Assembly (NCBI GenBank): GCA_041675085.1
Contig: JBAYUN010000001.1
Coordinates: 170,364-234,363 of the forward strand
DNA length: 64,000 nt
Direction of reading: 5' to 3'
Origin: Minisyncoccota bacterium
GTDB taxonomy: Bacteria > Patescibacteriota > Minisyncoccia > Phycocordibacterales > UBA9973
This document shows positions 6,414-63,624 of this stretch, in pieces (the first letter of the stretch is position 1; every line of letters starts with the position of its first letter). The notes below the pieces were generated by a model. That model ran no database searches. It worked only from the letters and a program-made list of their open reading frames with translations, and had not been told where the DNA came from. The position numbers and the translations under genes are program-made.

Positions 6414-6441
6414 ACTACTATTATAGTATAATTAGACCCAT

Positions 6442-6930: not shown

Positions 6931-6952
6931 AATTTTTCAAAATTCATAAATA

Positions 6953-6992
6953 AAAAAGAGGTTTCGATTATAATTAATCGAAACCTCTTTTG
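6953..6992. terminator. bidirectional Rho-independent terminator
   Basis: aaaagaggtttcgatt-ataatt-aatcgaaacctctttt flanked by T/A runs. Confidence 0.55.
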
Positions 6993-6995
6993 TTT

Positions 6996-7475: not shown

Positions 7476-7655
7476 TATTTATTCTTTTTTAAAATGTGAC
7501 GAACAATTTATATCATCCACACCATAACACACATACTTATAAAAGTAAAATATGCTTGGATCTTAAGTGGCGAAAACAATACACAAATTTGACTTATAAT
7601 TTAATTATGGTATCATATAAAAGATATTTATTTTGTACCTCAAAACACACAAAAA

Positions 7656-8150
7656 ATGGGAGCAAGCCTAAAATTCAACAAAGACCAAGTGTCAATCGTA
7701 TTTAGCAATGGAAAAGAATCTATTTTCTTTGAAAGCAAAGAAGAAGCTTTAAATGCTTTAATCGATTGTCACCAAAAATCAAAAATCACAGAGCAAGAAT
7801 TGAACGCGATGGCAACAGAAATAATAAACAGTAGTTTAAAATCGGTACTATTAGAAGAAATGAAAAAAGCTCTTGATCAGATGACAATCATAGTTTCAGC
7901 AAAAAGAAACAAGTCTAATGATGTTTTTGCTAGTTTATGCGGTTGTCGAGGTGCAACGGGAGCCCCTCATGCTTATATATATGACGAAGAGGGAAACCAC
8001 ATAGCACCAACTCCATTTTATTCAAAAATGCAGGGATATGCACACTGTGAAGAGTTATTACAAGATGGCATTATCTCAGAAAAAGAATACATTTCTTTAA
8101 AAAGTGAAATAGATTTACTTAAAATTCCTGAATCACTTCAGGACAATTAA
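7656..8150 (+). CDS. hypothetical protein with SHOCT-like C-terminal motif
   Basis: C-terminus GIISEKEYISLKSEIDLLK resembles SHOCT short C-terminal domain. Confidence 0.4.
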   Translation: MGASLKFNKDQVSIVFSNGKESIFFESKEEALNALIDCHQKSKITEQELNAMATEIINSSLKSVLLEEMKKALDQMTIIVSAKRNKSNDVFASLCGCRGATGAPHAYIYDEEGNHIAPTPFYSKMQGYAHCEELLQDGIISEKEYISLKSEIDLLKIPESLQDN

Positions 8151-8164
8151 AACAAATAGCTTGA

Positions 8165-8200
8165 GTTGGAAATTCTACCGACTCAAGCTATTTTATTTAA
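8165..8200. terminator. bidirectional terminator hairpin
   Basis: atagcttgagttgg-aaattctac-cgactcaagctat then tttattt. Confidence 0.5.
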
Positions 8201-8219
8201 TGTGTTTATAAGATCGAAA

Positions 8220-8813
8220 TCACCTACCAGAAAACAATATTATATTCTTCATCAAAAATGCACCAAGCATAGCCAACAAAAGTAAAGTCAGATAAACAGA
8301 CAATATTTCCAAATAAGAGTACGGCACTGTTTTTAACATACCTAAAATAATAGTAGTCACCCAAGAAGTCATAGATATAGCTCCGCTAATCATGACAAAA
8401 CTAGATCTGTCTCTAAAAGTTTTAGATTTTGTAAATTCTATCTCTTGATGCTTTTTCAAATGAGGCAAATGAATAGTATGGAAAATAATACCATTGATAA
8501 AGATAATAACCACAATACTAACTTTTACTAGAAATTTTTGAGAATTAGCATAAAAAACAGGATCAGTATAAAAAAGCAAAATTCCAGATATAATCAATAC
8601 CAATAATCCAGTCCAAACAACACTACCTCCAAGTCTCATAAAACGCAGCTCTTCTTTATTAATAATTCCATCTTTCACTGTAGCAAAAAACATAATATCA
8701 CTCATAAAAGCTCCACCTGCACCTAAAATTGCCCCAAAAACATGCAAAATTAAATAGATAGTTTTGATATCCAAAAATTCGGGTAACATAAATTTATTAT
8801 AACATAAAATCAA
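8220..8813 (-). CDS. hypothetical polytopic membrane protein
   Basis: Several hydrophobic helices; overlaps dinB stop by 4 nt (ATGA). Confidence 0.5.
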   Translation of the reverse strand: MILCYNKFMLPEFLDIKTIYLILHVFGAILGAGGAFMSDIMFFATVKDGIINKEELRFMRLGGSVVWTGLLVLIISGILLFYTDPVFYANSQKFLVKVSIVVIIFINGIIFHTIHLPHLKKHQEIEFTKSKTFRDRSSFVMISGAISMTSWVTTIILGMLKTVPYSYLEILSVYLTLLLLAMLGAFLMKNIILFSGR

Positions 8814-10648: not shown

Positions 10649-11110
10649 TTACTTTTTACCATTACGAGGTTCGAGTAGTATGTTTGGCGCATCCACCTCG
10701 CCAGTATATACTTTTGTATTACTTTTAGGGTTTTTTGAGAAAAGTTCTAACGTAAATATAGCAGATCCACGTGGCCCTAAAGTTACCATAATTCTAAAAC
10801 CAGTCCAATTATTTTTTTTATCTACATTAATAATATCAATTAAAAAATTAAATAACTTTTCAGTCTTTGTTTGACGAATAATAACTTCGATAGCATAATA
10901 TAATGGCCCTTGACCTAAGTATTCATTGAAACAAAAATAAACATGGTCAGGATTTAATCTATCATGGTCTACAGTGATAAGGAAATCATCTTCAGAGTAA
11001 GTATCTGGAAAATTAAATTGAACCAGAAACATATACCGGGCTTTACCGAATCCTCCAAGTTGTGACGGTCTATAAGGTTCAGCAGGATAAACCTTGGATA
11101 AGTTTTGCAT
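10649..11110 (-). CDS. hypothetical protein (153 aa)
   Basis: No recognisable domain; preceded by repeated element copy A. Confidence 0.45.
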   Translation of the reverse strand: MQNLSKVYPAEPYRPSQLGGFGKARYMFLVQFNFPDTYSEDDFLITVDHDRLNPDHVYFCFNEYLGQGPLYYAIEVIIRQTKTEKLFNFLIDIINVDKKNNWTGFRIMVTLGPRGSAIFTLELFSKNPKSNTKVYTGEVDAPNILLEPRNGKK

Positions 11111-15845: not shown

Positions 15846-16577
15846 CTAAATTTTAATAATTACACTTTCTAAATCTTTCGGTACATTTGTGAGATTCTGA
15901 TATCCATTTTTAGTTATCAATATCATATCCTCGATACGCACTCCACCAAATCCTTCAAAATAAACTCCCGGCTCGATAGTCATGACGCAACCTGCAGGCA
16001 ATACGTCTTTAGAATGCGGTTTTAAGTTAGGCCATTCGTGAATCACCGTCCCGACTCCGTGCCCGAGTCCATGAGGAAAAGCATCCATGCCGAATTTCTT
16101 ATCTAGGTAGCTTCGAGCTTCTTTATCTATGACTCGAGCTCTCTTTTCACCTTTAGATATTTTTAGCATTGCTCGGTCCATAGCGTTTAATACTCCAAGA
16201 TAAACTTTCTTTTGCTCTTCTGTAGGTTCTCCGTAAAAATACGTACGAGTCATATCTGAGCAATAGTCGAGTATTGTAGTCCCAAAATCAAACATAATAG
16301 TATCACCTTTTTTTAATTTAGTTTTACCTGGTTCATGATGAATATTTGCAGTATTTTTCCCAAAGGCGACTATCGGCGAGAAAGATAGAACTGGTGCTTT
16401 GTGTTTTACAAAACTTTTCTTGATAAAATCTTGGACGAATATTTCTGTAATACCTAATTTTAGAATCTTTAAAGTATCAGATAAAACTTGCTCGCTTATT
16501 CTTTGAGCTTTGATAATATTATCTAATTCAGCTTTACTTTTCGGAGCTCTCTTTTCGTGGATTAATTTTGTAGTCAT
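15846..16577 (-). CDS. M24-family metallopeptidase (methionine/Xaa-Pro aminopeptidase-like)
   Basis: HGLGHGVGTVIHEWP and EPGVY pita-bread fold motifs; 243 aa. Confidence 0.7.
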   Translation of the reverse strand: MTTKLIHEKRAPKSKAELDNIIKAQRISEQVLSDTLKILKLGITEIFVQDFIKKSFVKHKAPVLSFSPIVAFGKNTANIHHEPGKTKLKKGDTIMFDFGTTILDYCSDMTRTYFYGEPTEEQKKVYLGVLNAMDRAMLKISKGEKRARVIDKEARSYLDKKFGMDAFPHGLGHGVGTVIHEWPNLKPHSKDVLPAGCVMTIEPGVYFEGFGGVRIEDMILITKNGYQNLTNVPKDLESVIIKI

Positions 16578-16628
16578 ATTTTTATTATAACACCTTGTTT
16601 AAAAACCATAAAATGCTAATATTTACGT

Positions 16629-17531
16629 ATGAAAAAAGTACAAGAAATCCAATCAATAATAAATGCAAAAAAGTCAGACGAAGCTGACGTTGTATTAGTC
16701 TCTGCAGCTTATGACAAGACAGCATCAAGTCATAAAGGTACAGTCAATGGACCAAAAAGTGTAATCAAAAATCTAGCTACGCAAATAGAATTCTTTGACC
16801 GCGAATACAAATTAAGTCCAACAGAATATATCAAAACTTCTCACATAGACCTCGGTAATCTAAACACCCTAAAACCAGAAGCCGTCTATCAAAAAATTCA
16901 CAAAGTTACAGACAAGCTCGTAAATGAAGCCAAATTTGTTTTTATTTTAGGTGGAGAGCATTCTGTACCTCTGGGCTTATATAAATCTTTAACCTCAAAA
17001 TACAATCCGAAAGATGTGACTATCCTACAAATTGATGCTCATTTAGATTTACGTAATGATGACTCAGATTATAGTACCAATCCTACTCATCTCGCTCATT
17101 CGACTATAATGCGTAGAGCCCATGAACTCGGATACAATATCTTAAACGTCGGAGCGCGCAGTTTCTCAAATGATGAATATGCATACGTAAATCAAAATAA
17201 AAATATTAAAATTTTTGAATTCGGATATCCAAATAAAATACCAAAAATCGAAGATATTTTAAAATCTATTAAAACTAAATACTTATATATCACTATCGAT
17301 GTAGACGGATTTGATCCTTCTGTGATGCCAGGGACTGGGACTCCTGTACCAGGAGGATTATCTTGGGATTATGGTATGGAGCTATTAGACAAAGCTATAT
17401 CTAAATTTGAATTAATAGGAGCGGATATAGTAGAAGTAAGTCCACAAAAAGAAACAGTCATAACCGAATATTCTTCTGCTCAATTAATATACTCAATAAT
17501 TACTAAGAAGTTTAGAACTAGGTTTAAATAA
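16629..17531 (+). CDS. arginase/agmatinase/formiminoglutamase-family ureohydrolase
   Basis: GGEHSV, DAHLDLR, ITIDVDGFDP, GTGTPVPGGLS metal-binding signatures. Confidence 0.75.
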   Translation: MKKVQEIQSIINAKKSDEADVVLVSAAYDKTASSHKGTVNGPKSVIKNLATQIEFFDREYKLSPTEYIKTSHIDLGNLNTLKPEAVYQKIHKVTDKLVNEAKFVFILGGEHSVPLGLYKSLTSKYNPKDVTILQIDAHLDLRNDDSDYSTNPTHLAHSTIMRRAHELGYNILNVGARSFSNDEYAYVNQNKNIKIFEFGYPNKIPKIEDILKSIKTKYLYITIDVDGFDPSVMPGTGTPVPGGLSWDYGMELLDKAISKFELIGADIVEVSPQKETVITEYSSAQLIYSIITKKFRTRFK

Positions 17532-19060: not shown

Positions 19061-20563
19061 CTAAATCATAGGCTCAGCCTCGGTTTCTTTTGTTTCTTTT
19101 TGATTTGAGAGATTTTGTTTTTCTTCTTCTCTTTCTTTTCTGTCTCCTTCTTCTGTACGTCCGGCACCTTTTATCGCAGCTTTTTCTTCAGCACTACGAA
19201 TGATAGTAGACTCTTCTTCTTGGATCAATCTCTGAGCGTCACCTTTTGAGATAGCGTATTTACGACGTGAAGCGGCTAGTATCTCATCTCGATACGAAGT
19301 ATGAGTAGGAGGTAGTATACGTAAAGTCTCTGCTGAGAAAGGGTCATAACTCTCTCCGTCGATAGTCATCTTGATATAGAATTCTCCTACAGCAAGGTTA
19401 ATCATATCTTTGACTCCGAAAAGAGGATCGAATTCAGGTTTTAAACGAGTCGCGTCTTCTCCTCCTACACGGAAAGAAATAATAGATCCGACGTTACCTA
19501 GGATAGATTGATAAATCTTTGGTTGGATCTGACCTACGTATTGGTGAGCCATGGTGAGGTTCAATCCGTATTTACGAGCCTCTGATAGAATATTTTCAAA
19601 AGTTTGAGTCACGACGTTTTGGAACTCGTCGACATAAATATAAAAATCTTTACGATCTTTCTCTAGGATATGGGCGCGCTCCATACCGGCTTGCTTGATC
19701 TTGGTCAAGAACATAGATCCAAAGAAAGAAGAATTCTCTTCACCGATTTTACCCTTAGAAAGATTTATCAAAATAATTTTCTGCTCGTTCATCAAAGTAC
19801 TAATATCTATTTTATTTTCTTTTTGACCGAAAATATTGCGGAGCAGTGGGTCAGACAAGAATTGCCCGAGTTTATTCACGAGAGGGATGATCGCGTCAGT
19901 ATCAAATTTCTCAGACCAATCCGCGAATTCGATAGCGAAGAATCTTTTAACCATATCGTCTTGGATGTATTCCACGACTTTCTGACGATAATTTCTATCA
20001 GTAAGCATAGATATCATTCCACGCATCGTCGCATACGGATAGTCTAGAAGCGCCAAACAAGTAAAACGAAAAACGTGCTCCAAACGAGGAGTCCAGTTGG
20101 CACCGAATTGCTTTTGGAAAACTTCAATCAAACCTTGAGTTAATTGAAATTTGAACATAGGGTCGACGTTCGCCAGAGGATTGAAAGAAGCTGGGAAATT
20201 CACGTCAGACGGATCAATAATACAAACGTCTTCAATACGTTCTTTTGGAATATAATCTAGCATTGAGTCTATCACATCTCCGTGAGGATCGATAAGACAA
20301 AGCCCGTGCCCATAAGTGATATCTTGACGCAAGAAAAGCTCGAGGAGTTTAGTCTTACCTACTCCAGACTTCCCTATGATATACAAGTGACGACGACGGT
20401 CGACTCTCTTAAAACCAAAAATGAATTTCTTCTCTTCCAGAGATGCAACGTAATTAGTCCGCCCAATAAAAGAAACCTCCTCAGGTTTTACCTTTCCATA
20501 GACTGGAAGCTCTGGTGGTGGTGGACCGTATTTAATTATTTGAACTCGATTTGGTTTCACCAT
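19061..20563 (-). CDS. TrwB/TraD/VirD4-like (type IV coupling protein family) P-loop ATPase, 500 aa
   Basis: Walker [11 protein letters not shown] followed by CLIDPHGD (compare TrwB GATGTGKS...VIVDPNGD), Walker [10 protein letters not shown], then [13 protein letters not shown] block as in T4CP C-terminal half. Confidence 0.55.
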
Positions 20564-21743: not shown

Positions 21744-23450
21744 CTAATACACCTCACTCTGATAACATTTCTCACAATAAACTATCTCTGGTCTCTCTGG
21801 AGCATAACTTGTTTCAAATTCATTATTGCACCCTTCTTTCATGCAAGATCGATGCCAGAGTTTAAATGGATTTCTAAAAAATAGCCTTTCATTCAACCTG
21901 CAATAGAAACAACTTCTCGGTAAAGGTAAATTCATTATTTTATAAAATTTAAATTCGTCCGAAATAACTTTAAAATTTCTTTTACAGTCTATACACTCAA
22001 AAACATTATCAATAAAACTTTCATCTACATTTTCCAAAGAAATAGGGACACCTGTCGACTCAATGGTTTGCTTGCCTGTAGTTTTTTGAATATTGTATTG
22101 AAATTTATAATTTTTATCTAAAATTTCTTTTTCATTTAAAGGGAAAAAATAATTAGCTATAGTTTCATTATATCCAAAATAAGATAATTCAATAGGAAAA
22201 AATTCACCGTATCTATATACGTTTCCTTTTTTATCTACATAAGGCATCTCATTCATATGATTCTTTATCTTCTCCACCATCTCAAAATATTCTTCTTTTT
22301 TATACTGCTTGTTAAAAATACAATAACTTTTATTCTTTAAACCAACACAACCAAATACATACTTACAATTATGGCAATGCATATTGTATTCCAAAAATTG
22401 TGATTTAACTGAAAATAAACCAAATTTATTATTACTGGAATGATCTAGTACTATACCTTCATAACCAAGCTCATGCTCTCCAGAAGTTGTAATATCATAA
22501 CAATCTAAATTTTTACCTCCCTGTTGAATATATTTACAATTTTCTATCTTATCACCAATAAAACAATTTTGAGAATTTTTAGAATTACTTAATAGATCTC
22601 CTGTAACATTTAATGATTGAATTATATGAGCATATTTTCTTGGATATTTTAAAATAAATTCTTTAAATTCTTTCTTTGCTCTTTGCCTACCTTCATAAGT
22701 ATTAAGTTCATAAGTAGACAAAATTTTTTCATATTCTTCTTTAGTGTACTTTTTATTTTTAAAGCAATACTTCTCTCCTCGTAAACCTATACACATAAAA
22801 CAATCTGAACAATTACGACAATCATACAAAAAATCGGAATCTATACAAGATACACAAAAATATGAGCTTTTTAATTTATAACTATGTGAGCAATCTAAAC
22901 AATCATACATCCATTCTGAAGATTCTAAAATACAAGTACAATCTGTCATATTTTTACCGGCTAAAACCATATATCCATAAGAAACATTTTCTATATGCCA
23001 AGAACAAAAAGTCATATAACAGTTTTTAGAAAACCAAGTATCACCAGTATATTCACATTTAATGCTAGCTATGTTGTTATCGTTAACTAAAGCTATGTGA
23101 GGAATTTTATAAATTAATTTATTTAACTGAGAAAAGAAGTTTTCAGAAAAATTATAATCTTTTCCAGATTCAATTCCGTCCCATTTATCACTCCACCAAC
23201 ATTTATTACAATAAATAATTATATTAGATTCAGGAGAATACATTGATACTACGTTCATGTCACAAGAATCACATTTACGATTATATAAAGAAAAATCATT
23301 CCTCCAAGAAGCTCTTCTTTGGAACCTACATTCCGGACAAAAAGTTGGTGGTGGGACTTTTACCTTTTCATAGAAGGAAAAGTCATCACTTTCTATCGTA
23401 AAGTCATTTTGGCAATTCTGGCAGGTTTTCTTTTCGGATTTATATTCCAT
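21744..23450 (-). CDS. cysteine-rich multi-zinc-ribbon protein (568 aa), function unknown
   Basis: More than 50 Cys; N- and C-terminal modules of the form CxxC..F.I...F.FY.K....P..C..CR...R; internal repeats C..C.GL.G.KYC.FNK.Y.KEEY. Confidence 0.55.
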   Translation of the reverse strand: MEYKSEKKTCQNCQNDFTIESDDFSFYEKVKVPPPTFCPECRFQRRASWRNDFSLYNRKCDSCDMNVVSMYSPESNIIIYCNKCWWSDKWDGIESGKDYNFSENFFSQLNKLIYKIPHIALVNDNNIASIKCEYTGDTWFSKNCYMTFCSWHIENVSYGYMVLAGKNMTDCTCILESSEWMYDCLDCSHSYKLKSSYFCVSCIDSDFLYDCRNCSDCFMCIGLRGEKYCFKNKKYTKEEYEKILSTYELNTYEGRQRAKKEFKEFILKYPRKYAHIIQSLNVTGDLLSNSKNSQNCFIGDKIENCKYIQQGGKNLDCYDITTSGEHELGYEGIVLDHSSNNKFGLFSVKSQFLEYNMHCHNCKYVFGCVGLKNKSYCIFNKQYKKEEYFEMVEKIKNHMNEMPYVDKKGNVYRYGEFFPIELSYFGYNETIANYFFPLNEKEILDKNYKFQYNIQKTTGKQTIESTGVPISLENVDESFIDNVFECIDCKRNFKVISDEFKFYKIMNLPLPRSCFYCRLNERLFFRNPFKLWHRSCMKEGCNNEFETSYAPERPEIVYCEKCYQSEVY

Positions 23451-23454
23451 AATT

Positions 23455-25872
23455 CTACTCTCTATCTTCTAATAATCTACGCAAAACTTCTTCGGGAATT
23501 TCTTGTATGTTGCCTTCTGTTAATGGTGGTGGTGTGCCTGTTTTCTCTTTTACTGGTTCAGATTTTATTTCTTGCCCGCCTGCAACATTATGCATAGGAT
23601 TTCGGGCAAGTTTAATCTCTTCTTTTTTCTCTTCTCTTATTTCTTGCCTTGTTTCTATTTTTATTTCTTCTTTTATTTCTGACTTGATTGGTTCTGTTTT
23701 AATTTCAGGTTTTACTTGAGATTCTGTTTTGATTTGAGTATTTACGGGTGGATTTATTTTATTCCCGCCTGCAGAAGCTACTACTTCAGCATTTCGGGCA
23801 GGTTCTATTTTATCCCCGCCTGTAGCATTTCGGGCAGGGGTCACGATAATATCATCTACTTTTTCAGAAATCATATTCCTAAAACTATTCATTAAATCAG
23901 AACTCGCAGAGCGGTCTTTTGAATTTGTTGGATTTTCAATTTTGGCAACTTTTAAATCACTCAAAGAAATACCTTTGTTTATATCGTCATTATTTTTATC
24001 AGGAATGTTTAATCTAGGTTCGGGGATTTTTTCTTTAACTTCTTCTATATCCTTATTATGCAAGGCTATATCCAAGATTTCTTTTAGTCCTAAATTCAAA
24101 CCACTGATTTTAGGTTTTTCGGGTCTGATATGAATAGGGTTCTTTGGTATAACTTTCTCGACAATATTATTTACAAAATTTTTCTTCACAGGTGTAAAAT
24201 TATTTTTAGGAAAATCTGATTTATTTTGAGAATTAAAATTATTGTTTACAACAGGCTCAGATCTATTTTCTTTTTTTACATTAGAATTACTGTCTCCTCC
24301 AGCAAACTCTATACCTAAATCTGCAAGAGGTTTGAAAAATCTAGTCTCATCTTTTTTTAACTGATCAGGAGATACACGAATAGGTTTTATCTCGCCTGCT
24401 TTTATTTTTACAATACAGTCTTTACAGTACACAGCTCGTCCTGGTTCAGGCTTGAAAGGTACAGTAGTCATAGTGCCACAATTCGAACAAACAGTTTCAA
24501 ATTTCTCCCCGTTCGGATTGATAGCTTTGTTATTTTCGCGCGCATTACCGATATCACCGAGCGCCATACCACTCCAATCATTAATCTCTTTTTCGATGTC
24601 CTCTTTGGTACGACAATATAGCTCACGTGAGGATTCGACTACTCTTCTTTCAATATCAAGATTACCACCTTTGACCAAAGGCGCGATAGTCTTTGAAGAA
24701 AAAGGACGAGAAGTAATACCATCTATCATGAGTTTGAGATAAATCTTGTAGTTAGGTAAGTTCACGATATCCTCCGGAGTGAATTCAGGAGCAAATTCTT
24801 TTTCTAAGAAATCCGCATCGTCGGCTCCCACACGAAACACAATCATAGTCCCAACGTTACCGAAAATAGAGTCACGCATAGCACTAGACTCTTTGGTAAC
24901 CAATTGAGCTGTATATTGGTGAGCTACAGTTAGGTTCAAGCGGTATTTACGAGCCTCAGATAGAATCGAGGCAAAAGAGTCGGTGACGAAGTTTTGGAAC
25001 TCGTCGACATATAGATAAAAATCTTTACGTTCTTCTTCAGGAATACGCACACGCTCCATGGCAGCAAGCTGAATCTTGGTAATAATCATACCTCCGAGGA
25101 GCTTAGAGTTGTCTTCTCCAATACGTCCTTTGGATACGTTTACTAAGAAAATCTTGCCTTCATTCATCATGTCAAAAATATTGATAGTACTTTTTGACTG
25201 ACCAACAATATTACGAATAACAGAAGTCGAAAGGAATTGACCAACTTTGTTTTGAATCGGAGCGATAGCTTCATTACGGAATTTATCTTGCCAAGCTTCA
25301 TACTCATGAATCCAAAAAGCTTTGATCACAGGATCTTTCAAATTATTAATTATCTTTTGACGATAGTCTTTGTCTACCAACATACGAGGAATACCAAGGA
25401 GAGTAGTACCAGGAGTATCTAGCAAAGCTAGAATACAATTATTCAAAATATATTCCATACGAGCAGACCAAGCATTCGCCCAGATTTTCGTGAAAATACC
25501 CATAAGCCCCGACGCTACTAAGTGCTTGTATTTGGAATCTACAAGTTCAAGAACATTAAAACCAATATGATACTCAGTATCCGCCGGATTGAAATAAACT
25601 ACGTCTTTAAGTCTATGTTCTGGAATAGCTTGCAAAACTCCTTCGACGAGCTCACCGTGAGGGTCGACTACACACACACCTTCACCATTTAGAATATTCT
25701 GCATGATCATGTTGGACATGAGCACAGATTTACCAGTACCGGATTTTCCAAGAATATAAATATGCTGACGACGGTCGCGACGCTTGATACCAAAAAGAGT
25801 ATTCTTGTCTCTAAACGTAGAATACCCGATATAGGTCAAATCTTTATTTGGTGGCAATTGAGGCAAATCCAT
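23455..25872 (-). CDS. TrwB/VirD4-like P-loop ATPase with central zinc ribbon and long repetitive K/E/P-rich C-terminal tail (805 aa)
   Basis: YILGKSGTGKSVL...VCVVDPHGE, Walker B LYVDEFQNF, ARKYRLNLTVAHQ; zinc ribbon CSNCG...VPFKPEPGRAVYCKDC; tail with ARN-containing repeats. Confidence 0.55.
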   Translation of the reverse strand: MDLPQLPPNKDLTYIGYSTFRDKNTLFGIKRRDRRQHIYILGKSGTGKSVLMSNMIMQNILNGEGVCVVDPHGELVEGVLQAIPEHRLKDVVYFNPADTEYHIGFNVLELVDSKYKHLVASGLMGIFTKIWANAWSARMEYILNNCILALLDTPGTTLLGIPRMLVDKDYRQKIINNLKDPVIKAFWIHEYEAWQDKFRNEAIAPIQNKVGQFLSTSVIRNIVGQSKSTINIFDMMNEGKIFLVNVSKGRIGEDNSKLLGGMIITKIQLAAMERVRIPEEERKDFYLYVDEFQNFVTDSFASILSEARKYRLNLTVAHQYTAQLVTKESSAMRDSIFGNVGTMIVFRVGADDADFLEKEFAPEFTPEDIVNLPNYKIYLKLMIDGITSRPFSSKTIAPLVKGGNLDIERRVVESSRELYCRTKEDIEKEINDWSGMALGDIGNARENNKAINPNGEKFETVCSNCGTMTTVPFKPEPGRAVYCKDCIVKIKAGEIKPIRVSPDQLKKDETRFFKPLADLGIEFAGGDSNSNVKKENRSEPVVNNNFNSQNKSDFPKNNFTPVKKNFVNNIVEKVIPKNPIHIRPEKPKISGLNLGLKEILDIALHNKDIEEVKEKIPEPRLNIPDKNNDDINKGISLSDLKVAKIENPTNSKDRSASSDLMNSFRNMISEKVDDIIVTPARNATGGDKIEPARNAEVVASAGGNKINPPVNTQIKTESQVKPEIKTEPIKSEIKEEIKIETRQEIREEKKEEIKLARNPMHNVAGGQEIKSEPVKEKTGTPPPLTEGNIQEIPEEVLRRLLEDRE

Positions 25873-55901: not shown

Positions 55902-55973
55902 GGCCTAGTCGCCAAGTGGTAAGGCAAAGATCTGCAAAATCTTTATACGCCGGTTCGATTCCGGCCTAGGCCT
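55902..55973 (+). tRNA. tRNA-Cys (anticodon GCA)
   Basis: ggcctag..aagat-cTGCAaa-atctt..gccggttcgattccggc-ctaggcc. Confidence 0.85.
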
Positions 55974-56040
55974 CATATAGATTGTATTTTTATAAAAAAA
56001 TAGTTAGAATAAGATTTATATAAATATATATTTATAAATT

Positions 56041-56109
56041 GCCCGGATGGATGAAAAGTAAACTGCTTTACTTTTCATCCGAGTAAAACGAGGAGGCCGA
56101 CATCCGGGT
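56041..56109 (+). pseudogene. tRNA-Leu-derived structured element (tRNA-like remnant or small RNA)
   Basis: First 10 nt plus 7 upstream nt identical to tRNA-Leu(TAA) start (taaattgcccggatgg); 8-bp outer stem gcccggat/atccgggt enclosing a perfect 14-bp hairpin (56049..56080) and a 21-nt strand containing aggagg. Confidence 0.35.
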
Positions 56110-56157
56110 AATGGTTTTGTTTACAAAATAAAAAATATGTAATATATTTTTTAAATT

Positions 56158-56239
56158 GCCCGGATGGCGGAACTGGTATACGCGCACGACTTAAAATCGT
56201 GTCTCGCAAGGGATGTGGGTTCGACCCCCACTCCGGGCA
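56158..56239 (+). tRNA. tRNA-Leu (anticodon TAA)
   Basis: gcccgga..cacga-cTTAAaa-tcgtg, long variable arm, gtgggttcgacccccac, tccgggc. Confidence 0.85.
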
Positions 56240-56268
56240 CACAGCAAAATTATAATTTTTGCTAAAAA

Positions 56269-56341
56269 GCGTCCTTAGCTCAGCTGGTAGAGCAGATCCC
56301 TCTTAAGGATAAGGTCGAAGGTTCGATCCCTTCAGGACGCA
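56269..56341 (+). tRNA. tRNA-Lys (anticodon CTT)
   Basis: gcgtcct-ta-gctcagctggtagagc-a-gatcc-cTCTTaa-ggata..gaaggttcgatcccttc-aggacgc. Confidence 0.85.
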
Positions 56342-56365
56342 CAAAGTGCAAATATTGCACTTAAG

Positions 56366-56465
56366 AATGAAAGTTGTTTTTAAAAAACATTGCGCAGGCT
56401 GACGAGCCGAGCATAGCAAATTTTTAGCAAAAAATTATGTGCGTTTTTTAAAAACAACTTTCATT
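56366..56465. repeat. perfect 23-bp inverted repeat with 54-nt GC-rich spacer
   Basis: aatgaaagttgtttttaaaaaac ... gttttttaaaaacaactttcatt; spacer attgcgcaggctgacgagccgagcatagc... Confidence 0.6.
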
Positions 56466-56475
56466 ATAATAAAAT

Positions 56476-56559
56476 TGGGCAAGTGGCGGAATTGGTATAC
56501 GCGTTAGTCTTAGGAACTAATGCCGCAAGGCTTGAGGGTTCGAGTCCCTCCTTGCCCAC
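56476..56559 (+). tRNA. tRNA-Leu (anticodon TAG)
   Basis: tgggcaa..ttagt-cTTAGga-actaa, long variable arm, gagggttcgagtccctc, ttgccca. Confidence 0.85.
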
Positions 56560-56681: not shown

Positions 56682-57461
56682 ATGAAAAATGTAAACAACA
56701 ATTTAATATTTGCCTTAGGAATCTTAGCTGTTGTGGCTTTCAATATTCTATTCTTATCCCCTACTACTACAAATGCTTATGTAACTCAAGGAGCTTATAA
56801 CACAACTGGAGCATACACTTATTGTGACGGATGTGGAGGAGTTAATAGTAATGCAAACAATAACAGCAACTCTACAATAGCAACTCCAGTCTTGTATTCA
56901 CTATCCCCTACAAACACTACAGTCAATGCAAATACAAAAACTGTGACTATCTTGGGTACAGGCTTCCGCCCAGACTCTATAGCTAGATGGGGCAGCTTCG
57001 ATCGCCCTACTTCATACGTAAACTCAAGAAAACTTATCATGGAGCTAAACGAAGGAGACTTAAAGGCAAAAGGTCAATACTTGGTAACAGTAGTAAACCC
57101 TAGTCCAGACGGTGGAAAGTTCTCAAACTCAAAAGTTTTCACTGTAAATAATACTACAACAGGAGCAGTAGCAGGAGCGAGCACAAAAAACACAACAAAG
57201 AAAGTATCTACAAGTAATACAACAGTAAAGACAGTCGGAGTAGAACTTGATACAGATTCCTCTTTAAACGGCTCTACAGGCTCAATAGACGGTGACAATG
57301 ATAATCTATCAGCAAATGCATCAAGTAGTAATTTCAACTTCATGCCGAGCACTATATTAGGATGGTTAGTACTATTTATCCTAATCTATCTATCAATACT
57401 ATTATTTAGAAAACTTTGGGTCACAGAAGACGACAAAAACAAGCCCTTAAAGCACGCATAA
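56682..57461 (+). CDS. surface protein with IPT/TIG-like domain and C-terminal TM anchor
   Basis: Signal peptide; PVLYSLSPTNTTVNANTKTVTILGTGF...LVTVVNPSPDGGKFS; Thr/Asn-rich linker; C-terminal TM ILGWLVLFILIYLSILLF. Confidence 0.5.
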   Translation: MKNVNNNLIFALGILAVVAFNILFLSPTTTNAYVTQGAYNTTGAYTYCDGCGGVNSNANNNSNSTIATPVLYSLSPTNTTVNANTKTVTILGTGFRPDSIARWGSFDRPTSYVNSRKLIMELNEGDLKAKGQYLVTVVNPSPDGGKFSNSKVFTVNNTTTGAVAGASTKNTTKKVSTSNTTVKTVGVELDTDSSLNGSTGSIDGDNDNLSANASSSNFNFMPSTILGWLVLFILIYLSILLFRKLWVTEDDKNKPLKHA

Positions 57462-57648: not shown

Positions 57649-58575
57649 ATGGAAATATTAATTATTTTAGGATTAATTATTGGAATAGCCTTAGTGCTAT
57701 TTATAAATTTCACTACAGTCGAATCAGGTAACTATAAATTTATAGTTATTGGAGAGACCTACAGTAAAACACTTGATCCTTATACTAGCTTTAGTTTCTT
57801 TGGGTGGTATTGGATTGGTATCAGTTTTTTGTATAAAGTTCATAACTTTCCAATCAACAAATACAAGGTAAATCCAGACCGAAAACCAGATGAGGCGAAA
57901 AGTTGGGTTGTCCATGAAGATGGTGTCATAGTAGACACATTACGCAAAGTGGTAACTCTTCCTATTTTAATGGAAGATGTTGAACTTAAAGACAGAACAA
58001 AGATAAATCTATTACTTAACGTGATACTAGAGTATCGAAATCCTTATATTTTTGTATTTGACCTCAAAGGAAACCCTAGGCCGATTATCAGTATAATTGC
58101 CTCTAAGATAACAAACGAAGTCAACAAGGTAGCAAACTTAACAGCTTTTATTGATTTAGATACAAGCGAGAGCGCAGATTTTTTTAAAGGCTTACTAGAC
58201 GAAAATCCTGCGAACGATGACAATTTGAGCGATTTTAACACATTGCTTTTAAATAAAACTGGCTCAATTGCTAATAGCTTCAATATTAGCGAATTCAATG
58301 CCGACAGAGCTATCTTAGACGCAGCAAACAAAAAAGCGATAGCTGTACTGAATGCTGAAGCTCTAGGTATAGATGCAGAAGCTAATGCCAACTACAAAAG
58401 GCAAGACGCAGTTGCGGAGATTGATTCTTTGATTGAAAGATTAGAGAAAACTGGAGCAAACCCATCAGAAATACTAAAAGCAGTGTCAGATTTAAAACGT
58501 AGCCAAGCCATTGAAAAAACCAAAACTACGACTCTTGTACTAGGTGGAAGTACTGGCACAAATATCAGTACTTAA
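57649..58575 (+). CDS. SPFH/band-7-like membrane protein
   Basis: N-terminal TM, SPFH-like core, C-terminal Ala-rich coiled coil AIAVLNAEALGIDAEANANYKRQDAVAEI. Confidence 0.45.
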   Translation: MEILIILGLIIGIALVLFINFTTVESGNYKFIVIGETYSKTLDPYTSFSFFGWYWIGISFLYKVHNFPINKYKVNPDRKPDEAKSWVVHEDGVIVDTLRKVVTLPILMEDVELKDRTKINLLLNVILEYRNPYIFVFDLKGNPRPIISIIASKITNEVNKVANLTAFIDLDTSESADFFKGLLDENPANDDNLSDFNTLLLNKTGSIANSFNISEFNADRAILDAANKKAIAVLNAEALGIDAEANANYKRQDAVAEIDSLIERLEKTGANPSEILKAVSDLKRSQAIEKTKTTTLVLGGSTGTNIST

Positions 58576-59207: not shown

Positions 59208-59214
59208 AATCAAA

Positions 59215-59250
59215 AAGGCAAAGAATTTTTAATTCTTTGCCTTTTTTTAT
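59215..59250. terminator. bidirectional terminator between convergent gene sets
   Basis: aaaggcaaagaatt-ttta-attctttgccttttttt. Confidence 0.5.
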
Positions 59251-59267: not shown

Positions 59268-59981
59268 TTATATCGAGTTATTTTCTCCTAATACAGATTG
59301 ACTAGAATTTGTATTAGAAGTTGAACCATTATTGGGTGGCAAACTAGGGTCAGTATTTGTACTAGGAGTACTATTTACAGAAGGATTTATTATAGGATCA
59401 AAACCAGAAGTAGTATTGGTATTTGTCGTATTAGGAGGAGGTATAAAAGGATCTGAAGTCTCAATAGGATCTAGATTGTCGTCAATGGGTGTAACTCCTA
59501 TCGGATCAACCTCTACAGGATCAAATTGAGTGCCTGTACCAGTTGTTGTACCTGTAGTAGTTCCAGTACCTGTTCCCGCTCCTGAACCCGTCCCTGTATT
59601 TGTCCCCGTACCAGGAGGATTGAAAGGAATCGTAGGATTGTAATCATTTAGTTGTACAGTCCCCGCTTCTGGATCAATCCCCGTGATATTTAAAGTATTT
59701 AAAACTAAGTTTAGAATACCCCAAACACCCATCATAACAGTCAAACCAATAACTCCATAAAGCATATGATTCTTGCCATTAGTGCGCTCTGTTTCATTAT
59801 CAGCATTTGTTAAGAAAACAAAAACTCCATAAAGAAAATAAGCTATACCAATAGCAAAAAGCAATCGAATCAAAGGATTCACTATCACAGAATTAAAATT
59901 ACCTAAAAAGGAATTAAAATCTGCGTATGCTATATTGGGTAAAAATATTGAAAATAAATCCATAATTTTTATTGTGGACAA
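59268..59981 (-). CDS. TrbC/VirB2-like pilin paralog 6 with Gly/Thr/Pro-rich C-terminal tail
   Basis: Shared two-helix core AYFLYGVFVFL...ERTNGKNHMLYGVIGLTVMMGVWGILN; tail GTGTNTGTGSGAGTGTGTTTG. Confidence 0.45.
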   Translation of the reverse strand: MSTIKIMDLFSIFLPNIAYADFNSFLGNFNSVIVNPLIRLLFAIGIAYFLYGVFVFLTNADNETERTNGKNHMLYGVIGLTVMMGVWGILNLVLNTLNITGIDPEAGTVQLNDYNPTIPFNPPGTGTNTGTGSGAGTGTGTTTGTTTGTGTQFDPVEVDPIGVTPIDDNLDPIETSDPFIPPPNTTNTNTTSGFDPIINPSVNSTPSTNTDPSLPPNNGSTSNTNSSQSVLGENNSI

Positions 59982-60388
59982 TCTACACCAGGAGATTCAA
60001 TACAAGGAATAGAGATTTCAGTATCAGCAACATCTAATCCAACGAAGTTTTTGATGAAGTTAACCAATCCCCAAACAGATACGATAACCATCAACGCAAT
60101 AAGACCGTTGATCATAGCACCCCTTCCTTCAGTCTTTGCATCTTCATCACGAGCAATAGCATAGTGAATAACACCCCAGATAAAGTAGATAACTGCAAGA
60201 GTTATTAATACTGGAATAACATTATTTAAAATTGTAGCAATTCTACAAAGTAGAACGTTGAAAGCGTTCGGGTCTGGAATAGCGAAACAACCAGTTGCTT
60301 GCGCAGAAGCTAGTTGAGGAGCAAGAAAAGTAGCGAACATAAACACAGAACTAACAATCAAACCTAAACTCATTAATTTTTTCTTCAT
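59969..60388 (-). CDS. TrbC/VirB2-like pilin paralog 5
   Basis: Signal peptide ...LASAQA; core AVIYFIWGVIHYAIARDEDAKTEGRGAMINGLIALMVIVSVWGLVNF. Confidence 0.5.
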   Translation of the reverse strand: MKKKLMSLGLIVSSVFMFATFLAPQLASAQATGCFAIPDPNAFNVLLCRIATILNNVIPVLITLAVIYFIWGVIHYAIARDEDAKTEGRGAMINGLIALMVIVSVWGLVNFIKNFVGLDVADTEISIPCIESPGVDCPQ

Positions 60389-60530
60389 ATTTATATTTTT
60401 ATTTATTATTCTGTATTTTGTAATACAGAAAGTTATTTTTAATAATTTATAATTTCTATTTGATTCGACCTTTTTATATTCCTAAAGATTAGGTTAATTA
60501 AATTATATCATACCTATATGTGAAATAAAG

Positions 60531-60920
60531 CTAATTTGTGAATACCTGTGGAATAATACTTATATTTAATCCAAAAGTTCCCCCGAGAATAGCTACCAAC
60601 CCCCAAACAGATACCATCACAGTCAGAGCAATAATCCCCCAAACCATGAATTGCTTGCCCTTTTCACGTTTACCTTCGTCGGCTTCGTTTAGGACGTATT
60701 GCATGACTCCATACAGAAATAGTACGAGAGCTAAAGCAAAAATAAAAGGTACTACAGCCGTATTAATAATACAGATCACATAGTCTACTAGATTATTAAA
60801 TTTAGGGTTTGCAGACAGATTACAACCACCTCCTGTACCTTGCGCATTAGCTAAATAGGGACTGAAAACAATCAGTGTAAAGAAGAGTACAAGGAATAAA
60901 TTTTTAAAAATATTTTTCAT
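60531..60920 (-). CDS. TrbC/VirB2-like pilin paralog 4
   Basis: Signal peptide ...LANAQG; YVICIINTAVVPFIFALALVLFLYGVMQYVLNEADEGKREKGKQFMVWGIIALTVMVSVWGLV (compare VirB2 VNNICTFILGPFGQSLAVLGIVAIGISWMFG). Confidence 0.5.
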   Translation of the reverse strand: MKNIFKNLFLVLFFTLIVFSPYLANAQGTGGGCNLSANPKFNNLVDYVICIINTAVVPFIFALALVLFLYGVMQYVLNEADEGKREKGKQFMVWGIIALTVMVSVWGLVAILGGTFGLNISIIPQVFTN

Positions 60921-60923
60921 AAA

Positions 60924-61454
60924 TTAATTTGGTGTTACTGAGGGTATTATCCTAGTATTGATACCAAAGGTCCCGCCAAGGAGATTTACCAACCCCCAAA
61001 CAGATACCATCACAGTCAGAGCAATAATCCCCCAAACCATGAATTGCTTTCCCTTTTCACGTTTACCTTCGTCGGCTTCGTTTAGGACGTATTGCATGAC
61101 TCCGTACACAAACATGACTAATGCTAGAGAGAATATCAAAGGAACTACTGACAGGTTTAAAATACAACTCGTATAGCTTATAACATCTTGGATTTTAGGA
61201 TTAGTAGCTAAAGAACAACCTACACCACCTCCTCCAGACCCAGACCCACTGCCTCCACCAGCACCTCCTCCTCCATTACCACTCCCGTTATCTCCTCCAT
61301 AATCACAACCTTGTGCTAACCACTGAGCACTACCTACTTCTAAATCAGCACATTGAGCTTGTGCAATATTTGGAGTTGTAGTTAGAAAGACTGAAAAAGA
61401 AAGGACGAACAACATTAACAAAGGTAACAAATTTTTTTTAAATATATTCTTCAT
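60924..61454 (-). CDS. TrbC/VirB2-like pilin paralog 3 with Gly-rich insert
   Basis: Core about 120 nt near-identical to paralog 4; N-domain GGDNGSGNGGGGAGGGSGSGSGGGGVGC with 4 Cys. Confidence 0.5.
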   Translation of the reverse strand: MKNIFKKNLLPLLMLFVLSFSVFLTTTPNIAQAQCADLEVGSAQWLAQGCDYGGDNGSGNGGGGAGGGSGSGSGGGGVGCSLATNPKIQDVISYTSCILNLSVVPLIFSLALVMFVYGVMQYVLNEADEGKREKGKQFMVWGIIALTVMVSVWGLVNLLGGTFGINTRIIPSVTPN

Positions 61455-61466
61455 AAATTTTAATTT

Positions 61467-61868
61467 TTATAATGATAAAACTGTCTCTGATATTAATTGT
61501 GCAATAGCCCAAGAACCCAAGAGTATAGCAGCTCCGATAACGGTATAAAGTAAAGCGTCCTTGGCTTCTTTGATCTTATCAGGCTTGCCTATAGCAGTCA
61601 CAAAAAGGAAACCAGAATATATAATAGCTATAGCTACTAGAGGGATACCTATTTTGATAATACCTTCGAGAATAGTCTTTACAAAATCTTGTACATTATT
61701 TGCCTTAATAGGATTATCAATAGTAACAGCAGCTGTAGGAGTATTAGGTCCAGATCCAGTTGATTGAGCTAAAGAAATAACAGGAGAGAAAACAATCAAA
61801 CCAAAAACCAAAACTAATAATATGCTTGCTAGATAATTCTTTTTAAAATTCATATTAATATTATACAT
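61467..61868 (-). CDS. TrbC/VirB2-like pilin paralog 2
   Basis: Signal peptide ...ISLAQS; IGIPLVAIAIIYSGFLFVTAIGKPDKIKEAKDALLYTVIGAAILLGSWAI. Confidence 0.5.
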   Translation of the reverse strand: MYNINMNFKKNYLASILLVLVFGLIVFSPVISLAQSTGSGPNTPTAAVTIDNPIKANNVQDFVKTILEGIIKIGIPLVAIAIIYSGFLFVTAIGKPDKIKEAKDALLYTVIGAAILLGSWAIAQLISETVLSL

Positions 61869-61871
61869 TAT

Positions 61872-62318
61872 TTAAAATCCAATCCAAGCACCATCATAAC
61901 CCAACACAGATAAAATAGTACTAATTATCAACCAACAAGCGGCTATGATGATAAGCCCCTTGGCTGTATTCCAAAATATACTTTTTGCTTTTTCTCTTTG
62001 GGAAGACTGACCTCCAGAAAAAAGAAGCAAGAATCCCGCATACGCGAAAGCAATAGCTGCCAGGGGTAAAGCAAGCACAGTAAGAATAAAATTGATAATT
62101 TTATTTATCATAAATAAAAAATAATTGAAATCGCAAGGATTAATAATTGCCCCATCTTTATCTTTGTCATTACCACAAGGAACTAACCCACCCAAAGAAC
62201 GACTAGTTGATGAAGTAGATTCGTCTTTTAGAGTACTTTGAGCAAATGCTAAAAATGGATTCATTAATAAAAATCCTACTACATACAAAGACACAAAAGT
62301 TTTTAAAAAAGTTTTCAT
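61872..62318 (-). CDS. TrbC/VirB2-like pilin paralog 1
   Basis: Signal peptide ...LAFAQS; Cys pair PCGNDKDKDGAIINPCDF; core LALPLAAIAFAYAGFLLLFSGGQSSQREKAKSIFWNTAKGLIIIAACWLI. Confidence 0.5.
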   Translation of the reverse strand: MKTFLKTFVSLYVVGFLLMNPFLAFAQSTLKDESTSSTSRSLGGLVPCGNDKDKDGAIINPCDFNYFLFMINKIINFILTVLALPLAAIAFAYAGFLLLFSGGQSSQREKAKSIFWNTAKGLIIIAACWLIISTILSVLGYDGAWIGF

Positions 62319-62325
62319 ATTTCTA

Positions 62326-63624
62326 TTATCTTGTATTAAATATTAAAGTATTAAGGCGATTATTGGCTGAAAATATAGCGTCTTGAGGCTTCTTTGCATT
62401 AGACAAGACTTCTTCTACCATAGCTCTAAAGACATTAGACGAATCAGAAGGTGAAGGATCTAACCAACTACGAGCAAACAAACTTGAAGAATAAAATACT
62501 GGGAAATAAGAATCTTTTCGAGCTTCTGCTAATAGATCACGACGTGCTGGAGGTACAAATTGAGAATTACTATACTCTTTTGCAAAATCACCAGAAGATA
62601 ATGCAGTCACAGCTGCTAGAGAGGCCGATAAATTTTTAGTAAATGATGATACTGCTATACCTGTCACTCTCGCAGAAGTGACTTTGTTATTAGTATTTCT
62701 TATTTGAGGTATGGTCGTTACTTGAAAATCTTGATTTGGATTTTTGTCTAACAAAGTTTTAAGGTCACTAGCAAAACCAAAATAGAAAACTAAATCTTCT
62801 TTGCTAAAAGCATCAATAGACATAGGCAAAGAACGGTTCCAAGAATAATTTGGTTTTAACGGGTTAGAGAAACTAGTATAAAAATCCAAGGACGAAGCTG
62901 TATTAGTATTGCTCTCGAGAGAGTTATCTAAACTTGACCTCAGTAATCCATTCTGCTCCCCTGTTATGGTACTTCCTGTTTGCATAAATAATGTAGCTAA
63001 AATATCTTTGGCATACGAAACATTGGCATATTGACCTAAAGCAAAAGCACTTTGAGTTATTTGTTGTGAGTCATCTTTCTTGGTGAAAGTATTTGAAAAA
63101 TCGTAAAATTCATCCCAATAAACAGGAGGATAGACTACATTATTTGAATCCAGCATAGACCTATTGTAATACATAACCATTGGATCGATAGAAATAGGAA
63201 AAGCTAATACACCCTTAACATTTAAGAAAACTTCACCAGCACCAACAAAAGTATTTTTGAAATTTATCAAAGGATAACTAGTATAGGGTATTGGATAAAT
63301 TTTATTCTGATATTTAAAAGCAAGATTATCAGGCAAAAAGAATAAATCTGGACCCTTACCTACAGCCATAGCTTCTAGTAATTCTTGATCAAAATTTTGA
63401 GGAATGATACTAACGTATTTTACATTGTAACTCTTGCCTTGATTAAATTTAATTAGTAAAGGATTTACAACGCTCGATGGCGCTGTACCCCACATAGTCA
63501 CAGTCCCAGTAGGACCGGTATTAACAGCTTTATTTTCAAGGTCGATAAATCCAGCAAAAACGAAAACACCCAAGACCCCTCCGAAACCCAACAAAGCTAT
63601 AATCACAAGTTTAAAATTATTCAT
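62326..63624 (-). CDS. extracellular solute-binding-protein-like (SBP_bac_1 fold) membrane-anchored protein
   Basis: Signal anchor; GTVTMWGTAPSS...NVKYVSIIPQNF..GKGPDLFFLPDN...LAFPISIDPMVMYYNRSML..PPVYWDEF parallels the MBP-type SBP N-lobe. Confidence 0.5.
   Translation of the reverse strand: MNNFKLVIIALLGFGGVLGVFVFAGFIDLENKAVNTGPTGTVTMWGTAPSSVVNPLLIKFNQGKSYNVKYVSIIPQNFDQELLEAMAVGKGPDLFFLPDNLAFKYQNKIYPIPYTSYPLINFKNTFVGAGEVFLNVKGVLAFPISIDPMVMYYNRSMLDSNNVVYPPVYWDEFYDFSNTFTKKDDSQQITQSAFALGQYANVSYAKDILATLFMQTGSTITGEQNGLLRSSLDNSLESNTNTASSLDFYTSFSNPLKPNYSWNRSLPMSIDAFSKEDLVFYFGFASDLKTLLDKNPNQDFQVTTIPQIRNTNNKVTSARVTGIAVSSFTKNLSASLAAVTALSSGDFAKEYSNSQFVPPARRDLLAEARKDSYFPVFYSSSLFARSWLDPSPSDSSNVFRAMVEEVLSNAKKPQDAIFSANNRLNTLIFNTR

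Follow-up and report, generated by a model that had tools for sequence, protein, structure and literature searches.

A tandem array of six genes for small pilin-like proteins, p1 to p6 (numbered in transcription order), lies on the minus strand of a 64,000-nucleotide stretch of DNA from a Minisyncoccota bacterium (positions 170,364 to 234,363 of contig JBAYUN010000001.1, GenBank assembly GCA_041675085.1; the whole stretch is referred to here as the window). We consider it probable that the array encodes Patescibacterial VirB2/TrbC-like pilins of a type IV secretion system (T4SS) whose other components are encoded elsewhere, and that these pilins would form a filament or channel for host contact, heteromeric and built from fixed subunit classes. 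Arrays of this kind have already been published (Wang et al. 2023, PMC10633639; Quinonero-Coronel et al. 2025, PMC12102498; a 2025 review, PMC12857230), and the array in the window is a further example. What goes beyond the published survey (PMC12102498) is the linkage to gyrA, ftsJ and a gene for a solute-binding protein (SBP), the division of the pilins into five classes, the multi-domain fusions, the recurrent conversion of a loop and helix-2 segment, and the identity between p3 and p4, which exceeds the survey maximum. The GyrA of the window is 97% identical to that of one metagenome-assembled genome (MAG) and 78–86% identical to those of many MAGs assigned to Candidatus Nomurabacteria, Paceibacterota or Paceibacteria; judged by the relatives of its GyrA and its SBP, the host is a Patescibacterium of the Paceibacteria/Nomurabacteria type. 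The rest of the window holds the housekeeping genes of a small genome (ribosomal proteins, chaperones, tRNA synthetases and cell-wall enzymes).

A sequence-only reading of this DNA had taken the six products for VirB2/TrbC-type T4SS pilins, and profile searches bear this out. All six match PF18895 (T4SS_pilin), with scores of 26.5 (p1), 30.6 (p2), 33.4 (p3), 27.1 (p4), 33.0 (p5) and 31.3 bits (p6); against the curated gathering threshold of 26.6 bits, five of the six pass and p1 is short by 0.1 bit, and the public precomputed annotation agrees. The p2 protein also exceeds the threshold of PF04956 (TrbC/VirB2; 27.9 bits), which it matches with 29.4 bits over model positions 7–98 of 98; p5 (22.5 bits) and p1 (14.8 bits) match this family below threshold, and p3, p4 and p6 give no match to it. 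A third family, NF045849 of NCBIfam (Mbov_0395 pilin-like proteins of Mycoplasma integrative and conjugative elements; equivalog cut-off 40 bits), is matched below threshold by all six proteins (15.8–32.5 bits, E 5e-8 to 8e-3), the hairpin core of each aligning over about 70 of the 80 positions of the model (Mbov_0395/MMCAP2_0565). By these scores the six proteins are related to the NF045849 family and are not members of it. The VirB2 segment that had been cited earlier as a parallel was correct, with a 99.2% match to an annotated virB2. An AlphaFold2 (AF2) model of p2, built on an alignment of the six sequences (mean predicted local distance difference test score, pLDDT, 66.7), consists of a leader helix, a disordered segment and a hairpin of residues 53–91 and 96–132, whose core has a pLDDT of 70–85. 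Two hidden Markov models (HMMs) of the lineage, run against all open reading frames (ORFs) of the window, found no pilin gene beyond the six.

The ORF list confirms that the six genes are consecutive and co-oriented on the minus strand over positions 59268–62318, and the hydropathy of their products confirms the common architecture claimed for them: a leader, a variable segment, and two hydrophobic stretches (Kyte–Doolittle 19-residue means of 1.97–2.64 across all six) separated by a charged loop. In p1–p5 the hydrophobic leader is closed by A-x-A followed by Gln, a leader end that is common to these five and the seven annotated VirB2/TrbC proteins compared; the short leader of p6 ends PNIAYA/D (the slash marks the end of the leader). 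The variable segment had been described as containing Cys, which holds for p1, p3, p4 and p5 with their Cys pairs and fails for p2 and p6, which have none. The translated sequences also show, as claimed, an insert rich in Gly in p3 and a tail rich in Gly, Thr, Pro and Asn in p6. The leader of the p6 class (M-D-L-F...P-N-I-A-Y-A/D) is 12–16 aa long, conserved and, unlike those of the other classes, devoid of a basic n-region. The long tail of p6 occurs only in the lineages of the window and of the related loci L003 and L094, most p6 orthologues lacking it.

Comparison with related loci sorts these pilins into five classes that are old and hold fixed positions: p1, p2, B (to which p3 and p4 belong), A (p5) and p6. 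Eighty loci were fetched by way of GyrA, which is encoded 1.5 kb upstream of the SBP gene, and their ORFs were scanned with an HMM of the six cores; the comparative set comprises the 63 loci with at least three pilin genes, and the loci in which no array was found are mostly truncated contigs. The genes gyrA, ftsJ and SBP directly precede the array in all 63. Complete arrays have five genes in 39 loci, six in 13 and seven in two, with six the commonest number of pilin domains. By best-match labels the order is conserved, running from p1 (whose orthologues take the first array position in related loci) and p2 through a variable middle of B type, equivalent to p3/p4, to the A type, equivalent to p5, and p6; the modal array reads p1, p2, (A+B), A, p6. 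Nearly every domain (345 of 365) is closer to a domain of another genome than to any in its own array. The cores of the window proteins p1, p2, p5 and p6 are 62–82% identical to their orthologues as against 30–38% to their array neighbours, the mean identity within the window array being about 32%; p3 and p4 alone are nearest to each other. Class-specific marks are conserved as well, among them the PNIAYA leader of p6 and the LVPCG...NPC motif of p1. The two B genes of the window correspond to a single one in locus L003, from another species.

In many relatives two of these classes are joined in a single polypeptide. Fusion ORFs occur in 33 loci, 32 of which have as their third gene one ORF with two full pilin domains (leader, A domain, a linker of about 20 aa, B domain), such as those at 16176–16988 of L008 and 14948–15760 of L012; in the remaining locus, L042, the ORF at 16072–16989 has three domains (A+A+B). 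The B domain of the fusion ORFs has no leader of its own. An A+B fusion is topologically coherent, since both termini of the predicted hairpin would lie outside, and by the usual fusion argument the natural A+B fusions suggest that A and B subunits are in contact when assembled. In a term search, the survey paper (PMC12102498) contained no link to an SBP, no pilin domain fusions and no mention of 'gyrA', the only fusions being those of VirB3 with VirB4.

The fixed classes and the fusions bear on a different account of the array, in which the six pilins would serve interchangeably as the major subunit, one at a time or in shifting ratios, and provide antigenic or host-range variation, as proposed for the virB2 arrays of Bartonella and Anaplasma; the idea is raised in the survey (PMC12102498). 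The copy number at the B position differs among relatives and gene conversion has taken place between the B copies, both of which would fit such a repertoire, and the comparison of strains lends it further weight. Locus L093 comes from a conspecific strain (dS about 0.16) whose GyrA, FtsJ and SBP are 98–99.6% identical to those of the window at the amino-acid level (GyrA 99.6%, SBP 98.8%), but the pilins are far more different, with identities of 85.5% for p1, 89% for p2 and 52% over the part of p3 that could be compared. When L093 11307–12551 is aligned with window 61100–62318, divergence jumps right after the SBP gene. Within p1, dN is 0.005 in the core and 0.146 in the N-terminal variable segment, where dS reaches 0.75 and L093 has an insertion of 11 codons; for p2, whose N-terminal segment is a different one in L093, dN/dS is 0.61 in the pooled leader and variable partition and 0.07 in the core; and the p3 of L093 is a wholly different allele, with dS above 0.9. 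These raised dS values point to imported or converted sequence rather than selection on point mutations.

Selection gives the repertoire idea less encouragement. Relative to L003, which represents a different species with about 86% nucleotide identity to the window, dN/dS is 0.11–0.28 for the pilins, the SBP and the convergently transcribed surface protein as against 0.04–0.10 for housekeeping genes; the pilins are therefore faster-evolving and nevertheless under purifying selection. A sharp recombination boundary between the window and L003 was sought, and only a gradual fall in identity was seen. Positive selection on the variable N-terminal segments, which the earlier reading had put forward as worth looking for, did not appear: dN/dS is 0.20–0.83 in these segments, and no gene or partition exceeds 1. 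Against interchangeable subunits stand, in addition, the age of the classes, which keep their place in the array down to 65% GyrA identity, the conserved marks of p1 and p6, the joining of two classes in one polypeptide, and the nature of the conversion, which evens out the conserved core and leaves the variable parts unshuffled. We therefore regard a set of alternative pilins as unlikely. Of the 'diversifying pilin repertoire' that had been proposed, the diversity of the exposed N-terminal segments stands, since they differ sharply between conspecific strains, and the diversifying set does not, the set of paralogues being old, fixed and marked by dN/dS below 1.

The near-identical tract shared by p3 and p4, noticed at first sight of the sequence, is real, with ends slightly shifted from those first given. 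It covers 117 consecutive nucleotides with one mismatch, between flanks that are 62% and 60% identical in a global alignment of the two genes; over the last 300 nt, p3 and p4 differ at 71 sites, and their overall identity is 67%. In 100,000 permutations of the variable sites no run as long was obtained (P<1e-5), whether all sites or third-codon positions only were used. Third-codon positions within the tract show at most one difference in 40 consecutive positions, as against 36% difference overall, and selection at the protein level cannot explain the tract because these positions are near-identical too. The interpretation as gene conversion is upheld by the relationships to L094. In the flanks, window p3 is nearest to L094 p3 (0.75/0.68) and window p4 to L094 p4 (0.70/0.88), so that the duplication is older than the split of the two lineages; inside the tract the window genes are 0.99 identical to each other and only 0.82–0.86 identical to their L094 orthologues. 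The direction of conversion would be from p4 to p3, as suggested by the loop peptide, which in L094 p4 (NEADEGKREKGK) equals the window sequence and in L094 p3 (NDADESKKAKGK) is distinct. In L005 and L094, too, p3 and p4 resemble each other most in this segment (0.92 vs about 0.53 elsewhere in L005, with an 86-nt tract; 0.84 vs about 0.60 elsewhere in L094); homogenisation of the loop and helix 2 is therefore recurrent. When window 60924–61454 is compared with L094 12571–13149, a Cys-rich N-terminal module, QC...W.AQGC, is found on p3 in the window and a similar motif on p4 in L094; this is a weak hint, given how short the motif is, that N-terminal modules may be exchanged between the two B genes.

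Duplicated genes with a shared tract could also arise as an artefact of assembly, through the chimeric joining of strain variants in a metagenome. The source is a MEGAHIT-style metagenome contig (k141_557398), and conspecific strains carrying different p3 alleles do exist. However, the 117-nt tract is shorter than the final k-mer (141) and would not collapse, and two independent Logan contigs from other read sets (L002 and L093) stop exactly 30 nt into the shared sequence; a stop at this length (k-1 for k=31) is what a true repeat in the assembly graph produces. Both p3 and p4 are, moreover, present in the six-gene arrays of L005, L094 and L095, and in L005 and L094 the pair peaks in similarity at the same segment. 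An artefact is very unlikely as the source of the tract, and for the duplication and tract together we give it next to no weight.

The features of the locus are collected in table 1. The intergenic gaps within the array measure 3–12 nt, save for the AT-rich spacer between p4 and p5. The extended -10-like motif in this spacer may be an internal promoter by its match to the consensus; a promoter scan found no excess over shuffled expectation. The p6 ORF extends over 59268–59981, and the ATG at 59963 is the likelier start, as it agrees with the public gene call and removes an overlap with p5. The array transcript would end at the terminator-like hairpin that follows p6; the region has nine terminator-like sites as against 3.0 +/- 1.8 in shuffles.

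Table 1. Features of the pilin array and other genes discussed (positions are those of the window; a slash marks the end of a leader).
Feature	Position	Strand	Description
SBP-like gene	62326..63624	-	432 aa; PF13416 SBP_bac_8, 55 bits; N-terminal hydrophobic anchor (Kyte–Doolittle 19-residue value 2.71)
p1	61872..62318	-	pilin-like, 148 aa; leader ...AFA/Q; Cys-pair loop LVPCG...NPCDFN; two hydrophobic helices
p2	61467..61868	-	pilin-like, 133 aa; without Cys; closest of the six to classical TrbC/VirB2
p3	60924..61454	-	pilin-like, 176 aa, class B; four Cys; Gly-rich insert in N-terminal variable segment
Conversion tract, p3 copy	60987..61103	-	end of helix 1, charged loop and most of helix 2 (GVMQYVLNEADEGKREKGKQFMVWGIIALTVMVSVWGLV)
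p4	60531..60920	-	pilin-like, 129 aa, class B; paralogue of p3; 3-nt gap to p3
Conversion tract, p4 copy	60594..60710	-	likely donor
p4/p5 spacer	60389..60530	-	142 nt; extended -10-like motif TGATATAAT at 60510-60502
p5	59969..60388	-	pilin-like, 139 aa, class A; one Cys pair N-terminal, another C-terminal
p6	59268..59963	-	pilin-like, 231 aa; leader MDLFSIFLPNIAYA/D; without Cys; 130-aa Gly/Thr/Pro/Asn-rich C-terminal tail
Terminator-like hairpin	59212..59246	.	bidirectional intrinsic type, 16-bp stem, between p6 stop and convergent gene
Two T4CP-like ATPases	19061-20563 and 23455-25872		TrwB_AAD_bind, T4SS-DNA_transf and TraG-D_C matches

The SBP-like gene that had been recognised in front of the array is confirmed by its match to PF13416. 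It lies on the same strand as p1, from which it is separated by 7 nt, and is probably co-transcribed with the array; scans of the window found no ABC (ATP-binding cassette) permease gene. Synteny alone shows no functional link between the SBP and the pilins, because gyrA and ftsJ are as strictly conserved beside the array. On the other side, two labels given earlier to convergent genes were not borne out by the searches. The 259-aa protein (56682–57461) called IPT/TIG has no Pfam match to that family and instead matches NCBIfam CoaZ_rpt_PGGG with 72.8 bits; it has a C-terminal membrane anchor. The 308-aa protein (57649–58575) called SPFH found no match in Pfam, NCBIfam or PDB sequence searches. 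Four ordinary tRNA genes (Cys, Leu-taa, Lys-ctt and Leu-tag) lie at 55902–56559, just upstream of the CoaZ-repeat gene, and Rfam and tRNA scans detected only seven ordinary tRNA genes.

Two ATPases of the type IV coupling protein (T4CP) family, encoded about 35 kb from the array amid grpE-dnaK, dnaJ and rRNA methyltransferase genes, had been combined with the pilins into a 'dispersed apparatus'. Their family assignment stands, with all matches above the cut-offs (TrwB_AAD_bind 48.3 and 30.0 bits, T4SS-DNA_transf 42.3 and 25.8 bits, TraG-D_C 30.2 and 24.9 bits); a role for them in an apparatus with the pilins is unsupported, as nothing ties the ATPases to the array and neither has a transmembrane anchor (no 19-residue Kyte–Doolittle window above 1.2). 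About two such genes are found per Patescibacterial genome, rarely near virB4, and one that was tested is non-essential (PMC12102498). The larger, 805-aa ATPase has a C-terminal treble-clef zinc finger (PF23477). Directly downstream of its gene, a 568-aa ORF (21744–23450) gives no Pfam match and has a Cys-rich N-terminus with CxxC motifs (MEYKSEKKTCQNCQ...CPECRF...), resembling a zinc ribbon. Elsewhere in the window, a run of small ORFs (153–244 aa) at 5679–8813 and 10649–11110 has no Pfam family on record.

Several results weigh against assigning the array to a T4SS. Pfam scans and precomputed annotations show no VirB4, VirB3, VirB6 or TrsD in the window or in the 10 kb on each side of it, a span of about 84 kb of the 529-kb contig, so that the core genes of a T4SS are not beside the array; by contrast, all seven VirB2/TrbC genes fetched for comparison abut virB3. 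That this genome has a T4SS is presumed from the statistics of the lineage, VirB4 occurring in most Patescibacterial genomes and, in Paceibacteria, usually near dnaA (PMC12102498). Alignment by hhalign of 368 related domains with the seven annotated plasmid VirB2/TrbC proteins is colinear over 63 columns (E=0.0032) with a probability of only 9.9%, which is weak. When a profile of the six paralogues was run against PDB sequences, the only matches were to transmembrane helices of rhodopsins, with E no better than 0.03, and we judge them spurious; a Foldseek search of the PDB with the AF2 model of p2 returned nothing at E below 0.8. A hairpin of two helices is in any case a generic fold and cannot tell one family from another. 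Co-transcription with the SBP gene is read solely from the 7-nt spacing, and heteromeric assembly solely from the domain fusions. To our knowledge, no Patescibacterium has been seen to bear a pilus of this type.

These same results leave room for the proteins to be something other than T4SS pilins, namely two-helix membrane or envelope proteins that work with the orphan SBP, for example in uptake or in organising the envelope, in which case the name of PF18895 would be a misnomer here. Such a module would account for the isolation of the array from T4SS core genes, for the membrane-anchored SBP gene that abuts it in every locus of the comparative set with no ABC permease gene nearby, and for the lack of significant similarity to solved pilins; among the 1,948 assemblies of the survey that carry both genes, 813 likewise have a VirB2-like gene away from virB4 (PMC12102498). 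Yet p2 scores above the curated TrbC/VirB2 cut-off, all six proteins match, below threshold, a pilin-like family of conjugative elements (NF045849), homologous arrays lie inside a T4SS cluster and are essential in Candidatus Southlakia epibionticum (PMC10633639), and the adjacency of gyrA and ftsJ is as strict as that of the SBP gene. We consider a non-pilin membrane module quite unlikely.

The closest counterpart of the array is found in S. epibionticum ML1, a member of the Saccharimonadia, in which a series of pilins, shown by transposon sequencing (Tn-seq) to be essential, lies inside the T4SS cluster SEML1_0006–0019 (Wang et al. 2023, PMC10633639). The six VirB2-like pilins of this species are structurally conserved and divergent in sequence, and a pilus for exchange with the host has been speculated (PMC12857230). 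Both organisms are monoderm Patescibacteria with six small, divergent VirB2-like genes in tandem whose products have a leader and a helical hairpin. In S. epibionticum, however, the genes belong to the T4SS cluster and are essential, whereas the Paceibacterial array of the window stands alone after gyrA-ftsJ-SBP. A search of 3,035 Patescibacterial genomes with PF04956 and PF18895 found 441 arrays of 2–11 genes in 383 assemblies, most abundantly in Microgenomatia and Saccharimonadia (Quinonero-Coronel et al. 2025, PMC12102498). The window array satisfies the same PF18895/PF04956 criterion and shares the tandem layout and the low mean identity of the surveyed arrays, at about 32% compared with 25%. 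The identity between p3 and p4, by contrast, is above the survey maximum of 54%, because these two genes have undergone duplication and conversion.

Resemblance to better-known pilins extends over leader and hairpin. Agrobacterium VirB2 and IncP TrbC are, like the window proteins, small propilins with a long leader ending A-x-A before Gln, two hydrophobic helices and a short polar loop; but the classical proteins are encoded by a single gene next to virB1, virB3 or virB4 and serve a T4SS of diderm bacteria, whereas the window has six genes, five of whose products fall below the PF04956 cut-off. We know of cyclisation and lipid-containing pilus structures only in classical VirB2/TrbC-type systems. 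Tandem amplification and variation in a host-dependent bacterium are also seen in the virB2 arrays of Bartonella and Anaplasma phagocytophilum (cited in PMC12102498). Those arrays are read as lineage-specific expansions that provide antigenic or host-range variation, in contrast to the old, positionally conserved classes of the window. The NF045849 family derives from a wall-less or monoderm element of MPF_FATA type, and the VirB4 of Patescibacteria is related to the MPF_FATA class (PMC12102498). The similarity to NF045849 hints that VirB2-like genes may have come with a monoderm MPF_FATA-type system and were not co-opted from the T4SSs of diderms, a choice of source that the survey left open (PMC12102498).

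How the pilins of a T4SS encoded elsewhere would work can be outlined from what is known of VirB2 and TraA and from the genetics of S. epibionticum. The Sec pathway would place each product in the cytoplasmic membrane, and cleavage behind A-x-A would remove the leader, so that mature p1–p5 would begin with Gln. The mature protein would be a two-helix hairpin whose termini both lie outside, its charged loop being turned to the cytoplasm or the lumen. By analogy with VirB2 and TraA, a T4SS of monoderm type, encoded at another place in the genome, would then pull the subunits out of the membrane, and they would polymerise into a pilus-like filament or a channel lining, used in the contact of the epibiont with its host cell. 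Different classes may stand side by side in one heteromeric assembly, as the recurrent A+B fusions of relatives suggest. The N-terminal segments and C-terminal tails, predicted to face outwards, vary between strains by substitution, by insertion and deletion, and by the import of alleles. In the duplicated B class, repeated gene conversion keeps the segment of loop and helix 2 uniform. A bolder proposal is that the five classes are obligatory, non-interchangeable parts of one heteromer, built and used together with the adjacent orphan SBP as a device for host contact and uptake, in which the fusions mark neighbouring subunits, the N-terminal segments are exchanged and the lumen-side loop stays uniform. 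This fuller version is speculative and we think it improbable; we know of no conjugative or T4SS pilus so far that is heteromeric with fused subunits.

A substantial fraction of the bacteria not yet in culture are Patescibacteria, whose cells live attached to those of a host. In the one Patescibacterial species tested, the T4SS and its pilin series are essential. The locus described here adds no new kind of system, but it extends pilin arrays to Paceibacteria in the form of a stand-alone, strictly syntenic module. Its old and fixed classes, the fusions between classes, the hypervariable segments that would be exposed and the loop homogenised by conversion place constraints on how such pilins may work, and the comparative data bear on a heteromeric assembly that would be conserved on the inside and variable on the outside.

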